The notes: generated by a model not told the origin, from the letters alone. Counted from the first letter of the stretch, positions 7,969-25,472 are shown. The stretch is DNA of 45,593 bases from Parcubacteria group bacterium GW2011_GWA2_47_21 (GCA_001000545.1 LCOC01000001.1:1-45593); one strand, 5' to 3'. Made by a program: numbers and translations.

Positions 7969-9036
7969 ATGGATGCTTCAAGCGAACAACTGAATAATCC
8001 GGAAAACCCAAACCAAGAGAAGGAAGCGGAAAATGCTCCGGCCGGCTCTAACCAGAATACTGTCGGCATTGCGGCGGTCGTATTGGCGCTAGCGCTCTTC
8101 GGAATTTTTACCTTCCATATTGATTTAAACCAGAAATCAGAAAACACGCGGGCGGCTTTTCAGAGGGGCGGTATGGATAATTTAAAGTTTCCCGCCGACC
8201 GCCGAATGATTGACGCCTTTCAAGGCCTTCAGTTGGAAGCAAAATCGGTGGCTATTTTTGACTTGCAATCGGGAGAGTTTGTGTACGAAAAAAACGCAAC
8301 CGCCCAACTGCCACTGGCTTCTCTTACAAAAATAATGACGGCTATTGTCGCCAAAGAGTCAATTAGCAACCCGACGATTGTGACTATAGAAAAAGATGAC
8401 ATCACTCAGGATGGCGATAGCGGCCTAAAAATCGGCGAGGAATGGAATCTTTACGATTTGATTAAATTTATGCTGGTCTCTTCTTCAAATGACGGCGCCA
8501 GCGCTTTGGCCACGGCTATCGGCGCCAGCGCGGATGGCCTGGCTAAACCAGAAACCGAAGGGGAAATCGCGTCAAGCAAGGAGTCCTTTATAGAAAAAAT
8601 GAACGGGAAAGCGGTTGAACTGGGGTTGGACCAGACATTTTTCCTGAATGAATCCGGCCTTGATGAGACCGAGGGATTAAGCGGCGCATACGGTTCGGCC
8701 CGCGACGTGGCAAAGCTCTTGGCTTACGCCATTATCAAACACCCCGATATAATGTCCGTTACGGGCGAGAATGAGTTAATCTTTTCCACCTTCGGTAATG
8801 AAAATCATTCTGCCAAAAATACCAACCCGAACGCCGCGTCGCTCCCCGGAATCCTCGGCTCCAAAACCGGTTTTACGGATTTGGCCGGCGGTAATTTAAC
8901 CGTCGCTTTGGACGCGAGTTTTGGTCGGCCAATCATAATCGTCGTTTTGGGCTCAAGCGAAGAGGGAAGGTTTAGGGATGTGGAAACATTGGCAAAAGCG
9001 GTGTTCGCTGATTTTTATTGGTCGGAGAAGACATAG
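7969..9036 (+). CDS. D-alanyl-D-alanine carboxypeptidase (peptidase S11)
   Basis: N-terminal TM; SLTK (SxxK), SSN (SxN) and KTG motifs. Confidence 0.92.
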   Translation: MDASSEQLNNPENPNQEKEAENAPAGSNQNTVGIAAVVLALALFGIFTFHIDLNQKSENTRAAFQRGGMDNLKFPADRRMIDAFQGLQLEAKSVAIFDLQSGEFVYEKNATAQLPLASLTKIMTAIVAKESISNPTIVTIEKDDITQDGDSGLKIGEEWNLYDLIKFMLVSSSNDGASALATAIGASADGLAKPETEGEIASSKESFIEKMNGKAVELGLDQTFFLNESGLDETEGLSGAYGSARDVAKLLAYAIIKHPDIMSVTGENELIFSTFGNENHSAKNTNPNAASLPGILGSKTGFTDLAGGNLTVALDASFGRPIIIVVLGSSEEGRFRDVETLAKAVFADFYWSEKT

Positions 9037-19531: not shown

Positions 19532-21562
19532 TTATTTGTCTGAGTGAATTAATTTTTCCAATTCCTTAATTTCATCCCGAAGCAACGCCGCCGATTCAAA
19601 GTCCAAAATTCTCACCGCCTTGCTCATTTGCTTCCTTTTCTCGGCGATAAATTTATTGGGGTTGTCTTTAAAGAGCTTACTGTCCAGAATCAAAAGATTC
19701 CTCACGATTTTTTTATGCTCGCTTCCAAACTCTTCGGTAATATCCTTAATGATTTTAGAAATGGTCTTCGGCGTGATGCCGTGGCGTTTGTTGTAAGAAA
19801 GTTGGATTTTGCGCCGGCGGTTTGTCTCTCTTATCGCCTTCTCCATTGAACCGGTGCTCTTATCGGCGTAAAGAAGGACTTTGCCGTTTACATTCCGCGC
19901 CGCCCGGCCAATGATTTGGATTAAAGAAGTCTCGGAGCGGAGAAACCCCTCCTTATCGGCGTCTAAGATGCCGATAAGGGAGACCTCTGGCAAATCCAAA
20001 CCCTCACGAAGCAGATTCACTCCCACCAAAATATCAAAATCGCCGCGGCGGAATTTTGAAAGAATTTGGATGCGCTCCAAGGTTTCTATGTCGCTATGAA
20101 GGTACTCGGCCTTTATTCCCCTTTCTTTCAAGAAGGCCGAAAGGTCCTCGGCCATCTTTTTTGTAAGCGTCGTGGCAATCGCCCGCTCCCCTTTTTTAAT
20201 AACGATTTCCGCCTCGGCGATAAAATCCTGGATTTGGCCTCGGTGTTTTCCGGATGAAATAATCGGCCGGACCTCCAGCTTGGGGTCAATAAGACCGGTG
20301 GGCCGAATGACTTGCTCCACCACTTTCCCGCTCTTTTCCTTCTCGTAGTCCCCCGGCGTCGCCGAAGTGAAAATCACCTGCCCCACCCTCTCCCCAAATT
20401 CCAGGAATTTAAGCGGACGGTTGTCGGCCGCCGAAGGCAGGCGAAAGCCGTGCTCTATAAGCGTTTGTTTCCGCGAAGCATCGCCTTGTTCCATACCGCC
20501 GATTTGCGGCACAGTGACATGGGACTCGTCTATAATCGTCAGAAAATCCGGTTCTCCATTTTCGGTTTTTGGGAAATACGAAAGCAGAGTGTCAGGCGGC
20601 TCGCCCGGAAGTTTCCCTGAAAAATGCCGCGAGTAATTCTCTATGCCGTTGCAATAACCGACCTCGCGGATAAGCGCCAAATCATAATTGGTCCGGCGCT
20701 TGAGCCGCTCCGCCTCCAGGGTTTTTCCTTCTTTCTGAAGGGCCTTAAGCCGCTCGGCCAGTTCTGATTTGATGGTTGTGGTCGCCCGCTTCACGGTCTC
20801 TTTATCCGTAACGAAATGCTTGGCCGGAAATATGAAAATCGTCTCCGTATTATTTTCTATGACGTCTCTGGTAATCGGGTTGATTTTGGAAATTTTTTCT
20901 ATCCGAGCGCCGGCAAATTCTATCCGCTGAATTATTTCTTCCCCGGTCGGCATAATTTCAACGCTTTGTCCAAGCGCTCTGAAATGTCCGCTTTTCAAAT
21001 CCGCGTTAGTGCGGGTGAAATAAATGCCGATTAACGCGCGTATTAAATCGCTCCGGGAAATTTTCATACCTCTATCAAAGCGCTTGTTTACCTTTTCATA
21101 CTCCTCGGGACTGCCTAGGCCGTAAATGCAAGACACTGAAGCGACAATGATGACATCGCGGCGGCTTAAAAGCGCCTGTGTGGAAGCGTGCCGAAGCCGG
21201 TCAATTTCTTCGTTTATTTGAGCTTCTTTTTCTATGTAGGTGTCGGTAACGGGCAAATAGGCCTCCGGCTGATAGTAGTCGTAGTAAGAAACGAAATAGT
21301 GGACGGCGTTGTGCGGAAAAAATTCCCGGTATTCTTGGGCCAATTGGGCGGCCAGCGTTTTATTGTGGGCGATAACAAGCGTCGGTTTCTGAATGGCTTC
21401 TATGACATTGGCCATGGTAAATGTTTTGCCGCTCCCCGTCACTCCAAGAAGCGTCTGATATCTCTCCCCCGCTTTAAGACCCTCCACTAAACCCTTGACG
21501 GCCTTGGGTTGGTCGCCAGCCGGAGAGAAGGGGCTCTTAAGTTTGAAAGTATCCTTTCGCAT
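19532..21562 (-). CDS. uvrB: Excinuclease ABC subunit B
   Basis: GDQP, GVTGSGKT, YFVSYYDYYQPEAY beta-hairpin, IDESH, QIIGRAAR, C-terminal UVR motif. Confidence 0.98.
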   Translation of the reverse strand: MRKDTFKLKSPFSPAGDQPKAVKGLVEGLKAGERYQTLLGVTGSGKTFTMANVIEAIQKPTLVIAHNKTLAAQLAQEYREFFPHNAVHYFVSYYDYYQPEAYLPVTDTYIEKEAQINEEIDRLRHASTQALLSRRDVIIVASVSCIYGLGSPEEYEKVNKRFDRGMKISRSDLIRALIGIYFTRTNADLKSGHFRALGQSVEIMPTGEEIIQRIEFAGARIEKISKINPITRDVIENNTETIFIFPAKHFVTDKETVKRATTTIKSELAERLKALQKEGKTLEAERLKRRTNYDLALIREVGYCNGIENYSRHFSGKLPGEPPDTLLSYFPKTENGEPDFLTIIDESHVTVPQIGGMEQGDASRKQTLIEHGFRLPSAADNRPLKFLEFGERVGQVIFTSATPGDYEKEKSGKVVEQVIRPTGLIDPKLEVRPIISSGKHRGQIQDFIAEAEIVIKKGERAIATTLTKKMAEDLSAFLKERGIKAEYLHSDIETLERIQILSKFRRGDFDILVGVNLLREGLDLPEVSLIGILDADKEGFLRSETSLIQIIGRAARNVNGKVLLYADKSTGSMEKAIRETNRRRKIQLSYNKRHGITPKTISKIIKDITEEFGSEHKKIVRNLLILDSKLFKDNPNKFIAEKRKQMSKAVRILDFESAALLRDEIKELEKLIHSDK

Positions 21563-21686
21563 AATGATGGCCCGCTTTCACGCGGTATGTGTTTAAAATC
21601 CTCAATACAATAGCAATTTTTTGAAATTTATCAAAAAAGTGCTATAGTTTTTTACCTGATTTCTACTTATTTTTTAGAAATCGGAC

Positions 21687-21777
21687 CTGCCAGTCGTCGG
21701 GCGGGAATTAAGATATAGATACCACCGCCTTTACAGGCGGGGAGCCCCCGCTAAATTAGAAATTTCCCGCTGTGGCA
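21687..21777 (+). ncRNA. Candidate structured RNA/leader upstream of tRNA-Glu
   Basis: TGCCA/TGGCA and GCGGGAA/TTCCCGC closing helices around competing inner hairpins; -10-like TGcTATAGT upstream. Confidence 0.3.
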
Positions 21778-21783
21778 AAGTGC

Positions 21784-21858
21784 GGCCTCATCGTCTAGTC
21801 CGGCCTAGGACGCCAGGTTCTCATCCTGGAAACTGGGGTTCGAATCCCCATGAGGTCA
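21784..21858 (+). tRNA. tRNA-Glu(CUC)
   Basis: GGCCTCA/TGAGGTC acceptor stem, CCAGG-TTCTCAT-CCTGG anticodon arm, GGGG-TTCGAAT-CCCC T arm; CCA not encoded. Confidence 0.95.
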
Positions 21859-21907
21859 AAAAAAATAACAAGGGCAATGCGGAGCATTGGCCGCCTATAT
21901 TTTTAAT

Positions 21908-22032
21908 ACCTCATGGGGATTCGAAAGACGGAGCGGGCACCCGTTCAGCAGAACGGGTCGCGAGTCGGGGTAGCGACTTTTTCCGAGCGACGGCGAGGAA
22001 AAAAGTTGTGACCGAATCCCCATGAGGTCAAA
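21908..22032. repeat. Element bounded by an inverted (21908-21925) and a direct (22013-22032) copy of the tRNA-Glu 3' end
   Basis: ACCTCATGGGGATTCGAA is the reverse complement of 21839-21856; CGAATCCCCATGAGGTCAAA is identical to 21841-21860. Confidence 0.9.
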
Positions 22033-22240
22033 TTTTTAAAATTGGTGAGGAGTGGCGCTTGCTGAAAATGAAGATATAGAGAATATCAAGAATGGCAACG
22101 GTTTGAATCAAAAGAAGCGCCACAAACCACCACTTGTCATTGAGTTTTGCCGCTTTCCAAAGCGCCCACCCTTTCCAGGGAATAGTCCAGACCATAAGGA
22201 CCATAAGCAACCAAAAATTTTGTTCTAATAATTCTTCCAT
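22028..22240 (-). CDS. Small membrane protein (DUF5652-like)
   Basis: WTIPWKGWALWKAA...WFVALL...ILDILYIF pattern; ATG at 22240 preferred. Confidence 0.8.
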   Translation of the reverse strand: MEELLEQNFWLLMVLMVWTIPWKGWALWKAAKLNDKWWFVALLLIQTVAILDILYIFIFSKRHSSPILKI

Positions 22241-22272
22241 ATTCAATATTAGTGAAATAATTATATTAAGCG

Positions 22273-23574
22273 CTATCTGTTTTTCCACTCATTGTCTTGC
22301 CGCGCCAGAAGTTCTTTGGCGCGGGCCGGTTCGGCCATAATTTCTTCCACTACCTTTTCAAGCCGAATACCCTGCGAGCCCTTAACCAAAATGGCGTCCT
22401 TTTCCTTAATAAGATTATCCATTTCCCTATTCGCGTCGGCGGCGGTTTCGTATTGAAAAATATTTTTCTCGTCCATGCCGGCCGAGAGCGCGCCCAAAGC
22501 GATGTCTCTGGCCCTGACTCCAACCGTAATAAGCAGTTGGCAAACTTGGGCCGCCAACGCGCCGGCTTTTTTATGCTCTTCGGTGGAATATTTTCCAAGT
22601 TCCAGCATATCGCCCAAAATTGCCGCTTTTTTGCCTCCCGTTTCAATATCTTTAAGAGTTTGCAGCGCTTCCTCAACCGCCACCGGCGAGGAGTTATAGG
22701 TATCGTCAATGATGACGCTTCCTTTAATGCCGGAAATCAATTTCATCCTGCCGTTTGGTCCGTGATGTCGCCTAAGCGCTAGAGCGGCGTCAACTAAATT
22801 CACATTCTGTAATTTGGCGGCGGCCAAAGCGAAAAGCAAGGGGTAGACATGTTGGCGGCCGAGCGAACCGTCAAAATCAACGGGCAAGGAATTACTCTCA
22901 TGGTCAACTTTAAAAGTGATGCCTTGGGGTATTTTTTGCCCGTCCCGTTTGGCGTAATTAATCTTATAATGAGAAGCGCGGAGAGAGGCCCCCTTGATAA
23001 AACCGACGCCAAACGCCTCACCGCGGTAGGACTCTTTGAGCGTCAAGACATCTTCATCGTCGGCGTTAAGAATTAAAATCCCGCCATCTTTCAGCGTATT
23101 GAGAATCTTGCTTTTTTCCGCCACGACCGCTTCGGGCGAGGCGAAAAATTCCACGTGGACCGGCACTTTGGCCAGTCGGGTGATTACTGCCATATCGGAA
23201 ACCAGCCATTTTGAAATTTTTTCAATGTCTCCCGGCCGGTCGGCGCCGATTTCCAAAACCAGCCATTTAGGATAATTCGTCCGAAAGGCAATTAAAAACA
23301 GACCTTTGAGGAGATTGGCAAACCAGACGAAAGGATTATGCCAGCCGTTTGGCGCGCCGATTATGGTGAGCGGCAAACCAATTTCGCTGTTGAAACTTTT
23401 TTCGCTCTTACGGACAAAAAAGAACTGGGAAAACACCGAGTAAATCGCGTCTTTGGCCGAGGTCTTTCCAACGCTTCCCGTAACGGCAATCACCCTCGGC
23501 CGATATTTGCGCAAAATAAGCTTGGCCTCTAAAGTGATTGCCCATATGACAATTGATTTAAGCATTTTCGGCAT
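22273..23574 (-). CDS. murF: UDP-MurNAc-tripeptide:D-Ala-D-Ala ligase
   Basis: VTGSVGKTS, NSEIGLP, DDTYNSSP, GDMLELG, VKGSQG. Confidence 0.92.
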   Translation of the reverse strand: MPKMLKSIVIWAITLEAKLILRKYRPRVIAVTGSVGKTSAKDAIYSVFSQFFFVRKSEKSFNSEIGLPLTIIGAPNGWHNPFVWFANLLKGLFLIAFRTNYPKWLVLEIGADRPGDIEKISKWLVSDMAVITRLAKVPVHVEFFASPEAVVAEKSKILNTLKDGGILILNADDEDVLTLKESYRGEAFGVGFIKGASLRASHYKINYAKRDGQKIPQGITFKVDHESNSLPVDFDGSLGRQHVYPLLFALAAAKLQNVNLVDAALALRRHHGPNGRMKLISGIKGSVIIDDTYNSSPVAVEEALQTLKDIETGGKKAAILGDMLELGKYSTEEHKKAGALAAQVCQLLITVGVRARDIALGALSAGMDEKNIFQYETAADANREMDNLIKEKDAILVKGSQGIRLEKVVEEIMAEPARAKELLARQDNEWKNR

Positions 23575-23768
23575 AATTTAAGATATGACGCTTAACCACG
23601 CAATCAATTTAAAATAAAAAAACAAGATGGATGCTCATTTCCCCAATTTTGAATTTTTAATTACCATTTTTAATTTTGGTATTTTAACTTTTAATTTTTT
23701 GTTTAGATTCACTCGTTTTTTATCAAAAATTTTGGTATTTTAATCTCATTATAACAGGAAAAACCGGC

Positions 23769-25472
23769 TTATCTGTCTGGCGGGATATTGTAATAATTGA
23801 GCAGAAATTTGGTTAAGTCAAAAAACGGCCGAGTCAGGGTTTCCGAGGCGAACATGGCGCCACGGGGATTGACGGTGTAAAGAAAAATCAAAAACTTCGG
23901 CTGATAAGCGGGAAAATAACCGAAGAAAGAATGGAGGTATTCATCTTCAAAATAGCCGCCGCCTTCCGGGTTTGCCATTTGCGCCGTGCCCGTCTTGGCG
24001 GCGATGCTGAAGCGTTCCATCTTAAATTTACCGTGCGCCAAAGCGCTGTCAACTACTTCCACAAGCATCCGCGTTATTTCTTCAGAGGTCTCTCGCTTGA
24101 TGACTTGCGCCACATTCTCATAGCTCTTCTTGCGCGAAATACCGACATCATAATCAATGGCCGAGACCAGATGCGGATTGACCAAGTAGCCGCCGTTTCC
24201 CAAAACCGCCATCGCGCGGGCCGTCTCAATCGGCGTAAAAGCGATGCCCTGCCCGTAAGACGCCGTGGCCAGCTCTATATCGCGCGGGCTGTCCAAATTC
24301 TCCATAAGGCCGTGGGTTTCGTTTGGCAAATCAATGCCGGTCTCTTCGCCTAGGCCGAACCGTTTGAAGTAATCGGCAAAGCGTTCCTTGCCCATTTTTA
24401 AAGCGACGAAAGCCGCGCCGGTATTCAATGATTGGTTCAAAACCTCCTGCATAGAAACCACTCCCCTGCCCCGGCCGTCAAAATTTGATATCCGCCTGCC
24501 GTTTAACTCTAAAAATCCCCTGTCGTCGTAAGTGGAACTTAGTTTAATAACCCCCGCATCAAGTCCGGCCGCCAATGTCAAGGGCTTAACGATTGAACCC
24601 ATTTCATAAACATTTTCCACTAACGGATTCCCGAAAATCCGGGGGTCGGAAACACTCTGGAAATTATTCAAATCAAAAGTCGGATTGACCGCCATGGCAA
24701 TGACGGCGCCATCTTTGGGGTCCATTATTATTCCGCCAGCGAGCTCCGAGTTCCAAACGGCATTAAAGTCCTTGAGCGTTTTTTCCAATTCGCCGGAGAC
24801 CGTCGGTTCAAGCGTCAAGACCAAATTACCTTCTAAAGATTCGTTTTTGGAAACGACTTTATTTAGGCCTTTAAAAATATCGGCAAAAAAATTGGCGTAG
24901 CTTTTATTACCCTCTCTAAACAAAATATCTTCGTAATACTGCTCCAAGCCGTAGCGGCCGCCGAGCGAGTCGCCTTTATAAGCGACAAAACCGATGGCGG
25001 TGGCGGCCAAAGAACCGGCCGGATAAAATCGGTGACGCTCCGTGGAAACCTCAATGCCTGGAATAGCCGCTTGCTTGATTCTTGCCGCTGCCTCTTCCGT
25101 CAGGCCGTGAGCAAACTCCTCGTAAGAGTCGCCGATTTTCCCCGCCTTCATCATAAAGTCGCTTCGGTCAATTTCCACCATCGGCGCCAGCGCCTGATAA
25201 ATGTCGTCCGGATTTTTTGTCAGAGAAGGATTGAAATAAATAAAATAGGAGGTTTTCAGAGTTGCCGCCGCCACCAATTCTTCATTATTGGTCTTAAAAA
25301 AGATGGAACCGCGGTCAAATAGATATTCCGCGGGATAACGGTGGTCGGCTCTCTCTCTGTAGGCGCTGCCTTGAACAATCTGTAAAAAATACAGACGGCT
25401 GACTAAAATTCCGCCAAGGAGAATAAAAACGAAAGCGACAATTCTTAATTTCAAGGCCGTGTTGATAGTCAT
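23769..25472 (-). CDS. ftsI: Class B penicillin-binding protein (FtsI-like transpeptidase)
   Basis: N-terminal TM, dimerization domain, GSIVK (SxxK), SLN, KTGTAQ; dcw position. Confidence 0.9.
   Translation of the reverse strand: MTINTALKLRIVAFVFILLGGILVSRLYFLQIVQGSAYRERADHRYPAEYLFDRGSIFFKTNNEELVAAATLKTSYFIYFNPSLTKNPDDIYQALAPMVEIDRSDFMMKAGKIGDSYEEFAHGLTEEAAARIKQAAIPGIEVSTERHRFYPAGSLAATAIGFVAYKGDSLGGRYGLEQYYEDILFREGNKSYANFFADIFKGLNKVVSKNESLEGNLVLTLEPTVSGELEKTLKDFNAVWNSELAGGIIMDPKDGAVIAMAVNPTFDLNNFQSVSDPRIFGNPLVENVYEMGSIVKPLTLAAGLDAGVIKLSSTYDDRGFLELNGRRISNFDGRGRGVVSMQEVLNQSLNTGAAFVALKMGKERFADYFKRFGLGEETGIDLPNETHGLMENLDSPRDIELATASYGQGIAFTPIETARAMAVLGNGGYLVNPHLVSAIDYDVGISRKKSYENVAQVIKRETSEEITRMLVEVVDSALAHGKFKMERFSIAAKTGTAQMANPEGGGYFEDEYLHSFFGYFPAYQPKFLIFLYTVNPRGAMFASETLTRPFFDLTKFLLNYYNIPPDR

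Follow-up and report, generated by a model that had tools for sequence, protein, structure and literature searches.

A conserved three-way-junction element behind tRNA genes of Parcubacteria: a candidate protein-less cassette with target-copying arms

Why should the 3' end of a transfer RNA (tRNA) gene stand three times in close succession, twice in sense and once in antisense? The question is raised by tRNA-Glu and the sequence behind it (21839-22032) in a 45,593-nt stretch of DNA from Parcubacteria group bacterium GW2011_GWA2_47_21 (GCA_001000545.1 LCOC01000001.1:1-45593), which was analysed whole and is called the window here. The triple repeat is best read as the insertion signature of a protein-less, hairpin-closed cassette of ~130-250 bp. 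On balance we think it probable that such cassettes are mobile and home to the 3' ends of tRNA and transfer-messenger RNA (tmRNA) genes and to a T-arm-like site in topA. The window copy belongs to a very common and apparently undescribed family of small structured insertions behind tRNA genes of tiny-genome bacteria; no description of such an element was found in the full-text literature, with subscription journals and supplements outside the scope of that search.

The 16-mer CGAATCCCCATGAGGT is present at 21841-21856 (+), 21908-21923 (-) and 22013-22028 (+). Allowing one mismatch, the window contains it three times, while 100 shuffles averaged 0.00 matches (maximum 0); allowing two, these three sites are the only ones in the whole 489,564-base genome of the organism (G000). 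The triple repeat described in a first-pass annotation of the window, with an exact 18-nt antisense and an exact 20-nt sense copy, is therefore real. The antisense arm and the second sense copy form a perfect 16 bp stem (P1) that encloses 89 nt and closes a core (Table 1). The same annotation had placed two GC hairpins between these copies. Both exist and are stems of the core, ACCCGTTC/GAACGGGT at 21939-58 being P2 and ACTTTTTCC/GGAAAAAAGT at 21976-22007 being P3. The fold of 21900-22040 was calculated at -68.7 kcal/mol (z = -8.3 against shuffles). An A stands opposite U71 in the antisense arm, whereas tRNA-Glu pairs G2 with U71, so the arm complements the 3' strand and does not reproduce the 5' strand of the tRNA. 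Sense copy 1, the linker and the antisense arm together make an imperfect palindrome with 42-nt arms (inverted repeat I1, 76% complementary). No plus-strand terminator was called in the linker, a minus-strand terminator-like site lies within it at 21889-21875, and linkers resembling it were found at other element loci.

An assembly artefact was dismissed on the evidence of Logan contigs from several runs that bridge the layout with 0 differences: run X1 record 8 (21814-22379; this run may be the sample behind the window assembly), run X7 record 30 (21850-22095, another study) and run X6 record 23 (21942-22302). A contig of run X7 that skips 21903-21998 (depth 3.1, 22-nt side) was not used; its likeness is 85% and it may come from another organism. 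All the contigs matched to the locus are of DNA, and no RNA run is listed as containing it.

Table 1. Features of the tRNA-Glu locus, in window coordinates
Feature	Position	Strand	Evidence and remarks
tRNA-Glu (anticodon CUC), no encoded CCA; target gene	21784..21858	+	ARAGORN; Rfam RF00005, 56.4 bits
Sense copy 1, within the working tRNA: T-loop C56 to discriminator + 2 nt	21841..21860	+	Exact 20-nt direct repeat of 22013-22032
Linker: A-run, imperfect hairpin (21872-21880 with 21884-21892), T-rich run (21896-21904)	21859..21907	+	
Antisense arm, exact complement (18 nt) of tRNA positions 54 to 71	21908..21925	+	
Conserved core, three-way junction, ends GTGAC	21926..22012	+	Covariance model R1 match 21918-22017, 105.2 bits, E 1.6e-25; covariation
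Core stem P2: GAC/GTC base, GGA/GA internal loop, CAGCAG-type loop	21927-21966	+	
Core junction GGGG	21967-21970	+	
Core stem P3, apical GAGCGACGGCGAG	21971-22011	+	
Sense copy 2	22013..22032	+	Pairs with antisense arm (inverted repeat I3, 100% complementary; fold)
DUF5652 gene, convergent neighbour outside the element; TGA stop (22028-22030) inside sense copy 2	22028..22243	-	Open reading frame list; Pfam PF18893, E 9.7e-22

The element is not confined to this locus. BLAST of 21859-22035 against 15 genomes of the family gave 13 places outside the query, in five other genomes, and when 11 of the loci were examined, 10 proved to lie immediately 3' of a tRNA gene (Arg, Tyr, Val, Ser, Glu, His or Asn) or of the tmRNA gene. 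Their common order is tRNA, linker (often with a terminator-like hairpin), antisense of the T-loop, T-stem and acceptor strand, core, and a sense copy from C56; the order of the window was also seen at 10 further loci. The core consensus reads AAG-nC-GGAG, hairpin, CGAG-nC-GGGGT, hairpin, GTGAC, and in ten aligned cores 15 of the 24 predicted pairs have compensatory changes. A covariance model (R1) matched 93 times in 12 of the 15 family genomes (E <=0.01). For covariation, 104 matches (100 distinct rows) were fitted to the model. Paired cells reached 88.4%, against 61.0% in shuffles (0 of 500 attained the observed value) and 32-48% with partners slid, and double-change cells numbered 605 against 192 in shuffles, all of these counts coming from a model-fitted alignment of genomes that are kin rather than independent. 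In the paired cells of the 88 distinct strong rows G-U outnumbered A-C (139 versus 37), and one conserved G-U pair is found in 66 of the 100 rows. Such an excess indicates that the fold is selected on the tRNA-sense strand, which suits an RNA and also folded top-strand DNA.

Tandem G-A motifs and conserved purine junctions are further features of the core alignments. Recurrent hairpin-loop motifs, CAGCAG-like or GCGACGGC flanked by G-A pairs, exchange places between P2 and P3 in the short (75-nt) and long (100-nt) forms of the core, and in many copies an extra hairpin (P0) separates the acceptor part of the antisense from its T-stem part. In copy after copy the antisense adjoins the core directly; the junction of core and sense copy is always GAC and then target C56. 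The same arm layout, T-loop antisense in front and tRNA 3' end behind, surrounds a second and unrelated core (motif TGTACnGA..CTGTAAG, containing a small hairpin GAnnC-TGTAA-GnnTC) in seven distinct copies that have no Rfam match; the sites are G000:C5 (minus strand, ~56,400-56,560, 3' of tRNA-Ser(CGA)), L034, L010, L014, L026, L057 and L074. Separately, two near-identical cores 317 kb apart in one genome (L145, G047 310881; L153, G047 628105) have non-tRNA arms, GCTCAATTG / CAATTGAG, and lie within a repeat unit of ~150 nt; they may be a variant with a stem of its own.

At E <=1e-4, R1 matched 124 of the 151 genomes sampled from the order, with roughly 890 copies at order level; among the high-quality genomes it matched 109 of 133. 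The check proposed in the first-pass annotation, whether a sense-antisense-sense layout with a conserved interior and tRNA-specific arms recurs at other tRNA loci, is thus answered positively. The other 27 genomes, complete ones included, have no copy; G099, G065 and G013 are copy-free complete genomes, whereas G047, G111 and G076 are complete and copy-rich. Copy number is patchy, from 0 (G002, G004, G013) to 14 per family genome, with six in G000, and 43, 39 and 21 copies were counted in three complete genomes 0.8-0.9 Mb in size. A phylum-wide sample had matches at E <=1e-6 in seven of 151 genomes, five of them outside the order and with the core again 3' of tRNAs; five genomes of the other orders of the same class gave no match in that sample. 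Searches of 21300-22500 against Rfam 15 (E <=10) returned tRNA as the one significant match and eight further matches well below gathering scores, and only tRNAs were found by Rfam in eight further loci (gathering score) and three second-core loci (E <=0.1). Two exact core patterns gave 21 loci and 1 locus in IMG/VR, none above 18 bits by R1 and none with a tRNA. The metagenome contigs had 0 matches to two exact core patterns, and a scan of genome contigs recovered only the already known copy L122.

Position was recorded for 90 family copies (model-search rows at E <=0.01 minus two duplicated loci). A same-strand tRNA or tmRNA gene precedes 49 of them within 130 nt and eight at 131-400 nt; five lie at contig edges, 28 are without a tRNA within 400 nt, and an upstream tRNA on the opposite strand was found in 0 of the 90. 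The preceding tRNAs represent 17 amino acids, to which tRNA-Phe is added by G047, and tmRNA also serves. In G047, one to three copies stand within 130 nt behind each of 26 tRNA or tmRNA genes, as counted in the regions around matches only. A copy stands at five of the 43 tRNAs of G000 (one copy being 5'-truncated), and the sixth has no upstream tRNA. Several anticodons recur among the 43 tRNAs called there by ARAGORN (two of His-GTG, three of Trp-CCA, two of Thr-GGT and others). This bin, 73% complete, may be a mixture of two related strains, and its contig C5 begins inside an element copy.

The sense arm follows the gene in front of it. At 48 loci its median match to the last 16 nt was 14.5 nt for its own tRNA and 5 nt for other tRNAs, and in 35 of the 48 it matched at least 10 of the 16; for the antisense arm the corresponding medians were 6 and 5 nt. 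The window copy with its perfect arms is the clean end of this range. The arms follow T-loop variants (TTCAAAT gives TTTGAA and CAAAT), and an A replaces G opposite U both in the window (G2-U71) and at the tRNA-Ala G3-U70 of L122. They also pair through the former T-loop (ATTCG with CGAAT), so the antisense is complementary to the 3' strand and is not what is left of a duplicated 5' half of the tRNA. Both the discriminator and, where encoded, the CCA belong to the sense arm, and the repeat is 18 to ~75 nt long across loci. Insertions in the second sense copy confound a gapless comparison of how well the antisense pairs with either sense copy, and that comparison was set aside. A terminator-like hairpin stands between tRNA and element at many loci. 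The duplicated part extends to the end of the transcription unit in some loci, taking in the terminator at L008 and the stop codon at topA, and the two terminators of L020 are not copies of one another. A palindromic terminator-like module (ACAAAAATAAGGAG, hairpin, GACTATATTTTTGTAG) recurs after tRNAs, elements and topA in several families (L132, L122, L020 and others); these genomes may use it as their standard bidirectional terminator, or it may be an independent repeat.

Signs of insertion come from several places. The element lies behind the stop codon of topA in four genomes of two families (G009, G006, G011 and, from another family, G047). Its antisense matches a T-arm-like site at the 3' end of the gene (GGyACGAAAAC or CACAAAAAC), and the last 60-75 nt of topA are repeated after the core; topA orthologues without the element read ACAAAAAC, ACTAAGAC or ACCAAAAC at this site. 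At the 3' end of topA in G007 (L127) the same site holds a different insert, unmatched by R1 and with a long stem GTCGAAACTTCGGCTT/AAGCCGAAGTTTAC. The coding-end repeats of that gene are ~70% alike and differ mostly at third codon positions (by eye), which indicates that they evolved apart as coding sequence and that one was imported. Tandem arrays were seen in G106 (three identical 148-nt units after tRNA-Gly) and G118 (two units after tRNA-Leu), with a terminator only behind the last unit. At three loci cargo of 2-3.6 kb lies between the sense copy and the next antisense-core: NUDIX, PurD and alpha/beta hydrolase genes (L057); HAD and SET proteins between two identical 199-nt repeats (L084); and, in a 3.6-kb island behind tRNA-Ser(GGA) in G011 (L181, 699-3800), a UvrD-like helicase (642 aa) and a 390-aa protein without a Pfam match, between 68-nt repeats that are 85% alike. 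The last two proteins resemble a defence-type gene pair.

Similar cores are found at different tRNAs. P2 of the window, behind tRNA-Glu, is near-identical to P2 of a tRNA-Ala copy in another family, and both arm sets are perfect for their own tRNA. The Glu(UUC) and Lys(CUU) copies of G000 are ~93% alike from P0 through the core and have tRNA-specific flanks, a likeness that gene conversion explains as well as transposition does and that is not proof of transposition. At the tmRNA gene of G010 there are three sense copies with different T-stem strands (CTCGG, CCGCC and CTCCC), of which the resident gene fits the first only, and both antisense arms (GGGAG) fit the distal sense copy and not the resident gene. 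Since the antisense matches this distal, foreign-looking copy, sense and antisense seem to travel with the core and not to be re-made at each insertion. The first-pass proposal of a tiny tRNA-targeting element that takes its ends from the target is thus upheld in part: the sense arm tracks its own tRNA, the antisense does so at a minority of loci, and at the tmRNA locus the arms appear to have been carried in.

No partner enzyme emerged from the searches. The first-pass statement that the locus is without an integrase was found to be correct: the flanking genes are uvrB, the DUF5652 gene and a Mur ligase gene (all -), and no integrase is present among the open reading frames of 20000-24000, nor in or beside the three cargo islands. 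Reverse transcriptase (PF00078) is absent from copy-rich G009, G011, G047 and G076 and present in copy-free G002 and G004, and the IS110 DEDD transposase (PF01548) exceeded the cut-off in 0 of five copy-rich complete genomes. The Y1 (HUH) transposase (PF01797) was found in all five copy-rich genomes, yet also, over the cut-off, in one of five copy-free ones; order-wide it is present in 91 of 151 genomes, including at least eight of 20 listed copy-free genomes, and is missing from G041, G019, G056 and G011, which hold 9-15 copies, so that its presence does not track the copies and it was rejected as the partner. Tyrosine recombinase (PF00589) gave one match each in G111 and G076 and, in G047, one on the large contig and two on small contigs. 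In three genomes a tyrosine recombinase lies ~3-5 kb from copies, which is due to conserved synteny of xer, exonuclease III, a nucleotidyltransferase-like gene (by eye) and a tRNA cluster.

A mobile cassette of the kind favoured here would consist of the three-way-junction core closed by a stem of antisense and sense strands of the target 3' part, from the T-loop onward. When folded, the antisense-core-sense strand, as single-stranded DNA or RNA, would present a double-stranded mimic of the target, and an enzyme acting in trans would recombine this mimic with the chromosomal copy in the manner of a folded attC site or the attP hairpin of CTX phage. By analogy with these, the observed order is what would be expected of a circular strand that integrates through a folded hairpin site: integration would leave the target 3' end, linker or cargo, antisense, core and a second target 3' end, and the target gene would stay intact because its 3' part is present twice. 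Integration through a hairpin would account for the antisense beside the core, the intact target, arrays and cargo at the same sites, and an integrase that does not travel with the element. Possible too, and put forward only tentatively, is a new class of element, in which the recognition stem of a protein-less cassette is copied from the 3' half of the target and re-made for new targets (~18 tRNA species, tmRNA and topA). Such self-retargeting homing would proceed via a folded strand or a tRNA-mimicking RNA, with a host enzyme or a catalytic core of its own, and the class would have colonised most tRNA genes across the order and would dock cargo.

Several observations weigh against a mobile cassette. 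No excised form, empty/filled allele pair or recent transposition was seen; at tRNA-Glu(CUC), the empty sites of G011 and G001 have flanks that are not syntenic, and the borders of the insertion could not be read from them. Orthologous copies persist between species at ~89-90% identity, which suits a stable feature kept by the host as well. The antisense is tRNA-specific over at least 8 nt in 20 of the 48 loci only, and over at least 10 nt in eight, and integration through a hairpin does not explain how the arms were first matched to ~18 tRNA species. No enzyme to move the cassette came to light among the candidates listed above, and three copy-rich genomes have a single chromosomal Xer-like recombinase each, in housekeeping synteny. 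The kinship of the genomes and the fitted alignment, already stated with the covariation counts, belong here too, and the G-U excess, the conserved G-A motifs and the place inside tRNA transcription units suit RNA better than DNA.

These last features lead to the main rival of the mobile cassette, a tRNA-like non-coding RNA that is transcribed with or just after the tRNA. Its P1 would mimic an acceptor/T-stem minihelix, discriminator included, to be trimmed by RNase P, RNase Z and the CCA enzyme, and the core, as an expanded T-loop, would function in protein binding, in catalysis, or as a decoy or spare part for tRNA 3' halves, with mobility secondary or absent. The two are not mutually exclusive. 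We consider the RNA rather unlikely as the explanation, although much agrees with it: all 57 linked copies lie on the strand of their tRNA, G-U cells outnumber A-C cells and one G-U pair is conserved, G-A motifs and purine junctions are kept, arrays run without a terminator until past the last unit, orthologous copies are retained between species, and the discriminator (and encoded CCA) is part of the sense arm. It is opposed by the topA copies, whose arms are coding sequence and not tRNA; by the change of tRNA-Ala G3-U70 to A-U, with which aminoacylation identity is lost; by the copy-free genomes; by the terminator-like hairpin that splits tRNA from element at many loci; by the versions with cargo; and by the second, unrelated core that shares the arm layout. 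If an RNA is active, it might also mediate or guide the mobility itself, the antisense guide pairing with the target 3' half and a ribozyme-like core or a protein joining the core to the target at 55/56, with later copying back into DNA. The invariant GAC-C56 junction, a duplication that runs to the end of the transcription unit (the L008 terminator, the topA stop codon) and the RNA-type structure signals (G-U excess, covariation) would fit such a route; the missing reverse transcriptase of the four copy-rich genomes, the lack of a match to any Rfam ribozyme family and the unlike terminators of L020 do not, and we hold it to be very unlikely.

Equally low is the probability we give to a maturation switch, in which the antisense of a read-through precursor would pair with the tRNA 3' half and block folding, or with sense copy 2 and release it, thereby tuning maturation. 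Either pairing could form, the tRNA 3' half and the antisense are paired in the minimum-energy fold of 21784-22040 (-120.2 kcal/mol, z = -8.25), and the layout recurs at many tRNAs. The same element, however, stands behind the protein gene topA and at the ends of cargo islands, which makes a switch less likely and means that it cannot be the general purpose, possible as it is for read-through transcripts. Nor would a two-state hairpin need a conserved 87-nt core; copy number, moreover, varies between 0 and 43 per genome, and beyond the T-loop the antisense is tRNA-specific in only 20 of 48 loci. Direct repeats of tRNA 3' ends from the T-loop are the usual signature of integrase islands, and the repeats could in principle be decayed attL/attR scars of such islands, the antisense having arisen secondarily by replication template switching that perfected palindromes around a terminator hairpin. 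The direct repeats themselves, the long imperfect palindrome I1 running from sense copy 1 through the linker to the antisense arm, and the use of tmRNA as a target agree with such scars. A core kept with compensatory changes in 124 of 151 genomes is not expected of a scar, nor is an antisense that adjoins the core directly in copy after copy; together with the cargo islands devoid of integrase and the lone Xer-like recombinase of the three copy-rich genomes, this makes decayed scars very unlikely.

Each known family considered fails at least one testable defining feature. The nearest likenesses to the favoured mobile cassette are with CTX-phage attP and the integrative mobile elements exploiting Xer (IMEX), where a folded single-stranded hairpin site has a stem that mimics the chromosomal target duplex and host Xer is used without an integrase of the element's own. 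In the window, likewise, the perfect 16-bp stem has the sequence of the tRNA 3' half; the parts follow one another as target, body, antisense, loop, target, and no integrase is borne by the element. Unlike those systems, the target is a tRNA/tmRNA 3' half (and topA) and not a known dif, the stem is specific for each tRNA, the loop is a conserved three-way junction, and the elements are ~150 bp long with up to 43 per genome. The R''/R' consensus of integron attC sites is RYYYAAC / GTTRRRY. It is not present here, where the ends read GA-n-TCGAA and GAC-CGA-n (alignments by eye); the junction, moreover, follows T55 of the T-loop, the target-copying arms are 8-21 nt long, and no integron integrase platform was seen at the loci. 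Integron attC sites, which also form clusters lacking an integrase (PMC2727003, PMC6393395), are structured imperfect palindromes used as folded single strands. The antisense box at the 5' side and sense box at the 3' side, the arrays at one site (G106, G118) and the cassettes that are empty or carry cargo (L057, L084, L181) are shared with them.

Integrative islands in tRNA and tmRNA genes are kilobases long, encode or depend on a tyrosine recombinase, and are without an antisense copy or a structured core. The present elements differ in having both of the latter, and no integrase was found with them. A 3'-part target, direct repeats, arrays, cargo and streamlined genomes are common ground with such islands, including tycheposons (bioRxiv 10.1101/2020.12.28.424599). 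The exact 20-nt repeat of the window, and the match over 10 or more of the final 16 nt at 35 of 48 loci, likewise resemble the att scar of an integrase island. Repetitive extragenic palindromic (REP) sequences and REPINs, moved by the RAYT Y1 HUH transposase, and miniature inverted-repeat transposable elements (MITEs) are short protein-less hairpin repeats with tens of copies and long persistence. The elements are also short, protein-less, hairpin-forming and present in tens of copies. Their arms are target-derived, their sites are specific (tRNA ends) and Y1_Tnp is not associated with them, in all of which they are unlike REPIN and MITE; unlike MITEs, they have no terminal inverted repeats of their own or short fixed target duplication, the arms varying with the neighbouring gene. 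In the tRNA-like RNAs (tmRNA, the bacterial Y RNA YrlA and viral tRNA-like structures), the 5' and 3' ends close an acceptor/T-stem minihelix that bears a discriminator. Such a minihelix is found here too; a junction of ~87 nt, however, replaces the T-loop, the stems copy the neighbouring gene, and Rfam gives no match. Retroelements (retrons, group II introns, diversity-generating retroelements) differ in that reverse transcriptase does not follow the copies, and IS110 with its bridge RNA in that the five copy-rich complete genomes have no DEDD transposase.

If the cassette moves by means of a folded target mimic, it would show how genes are gained and shuffled at tRNA loci in tiny genomes without integrases and transposases, and recombination with a recognition part copied from the target would be a possible new principle. 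If an RNA is the active form, the family would be a major class of structured RNA in uncultivated bacteria, one that mimics tRNA and reaches 43 copies per 0.8 Mb. Many intergenic stretches of these genomes that have no annotation, as well as many contig breaks and repeats of tRNA 3' fragments, are accounted for by the family, and R1 is ready for the annotation of further copies.

Three minor observations stand apart from the element. A weak R1 match in the window (8807-8881, -; 13.7 bits, E 0.27), without a nearby tRNA, is probably due to chance. In G011 (L100, 572-636 and 1379-1443) there is an exact 65-nt direct repeat whose first copy begins with the final bases of a tRNA-Glu(CUC) that lacks the element and whose second copy lies 807 nt further downstream; the two resemble an att-type pair around a small island. 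Between uvrB and the tRNA of the window (21604-21651), an inverted repeat with 21-nt arms (86% complementary) lies over promoter-like hexamers on both strands (TTGAAA-16-TATAGT on +).

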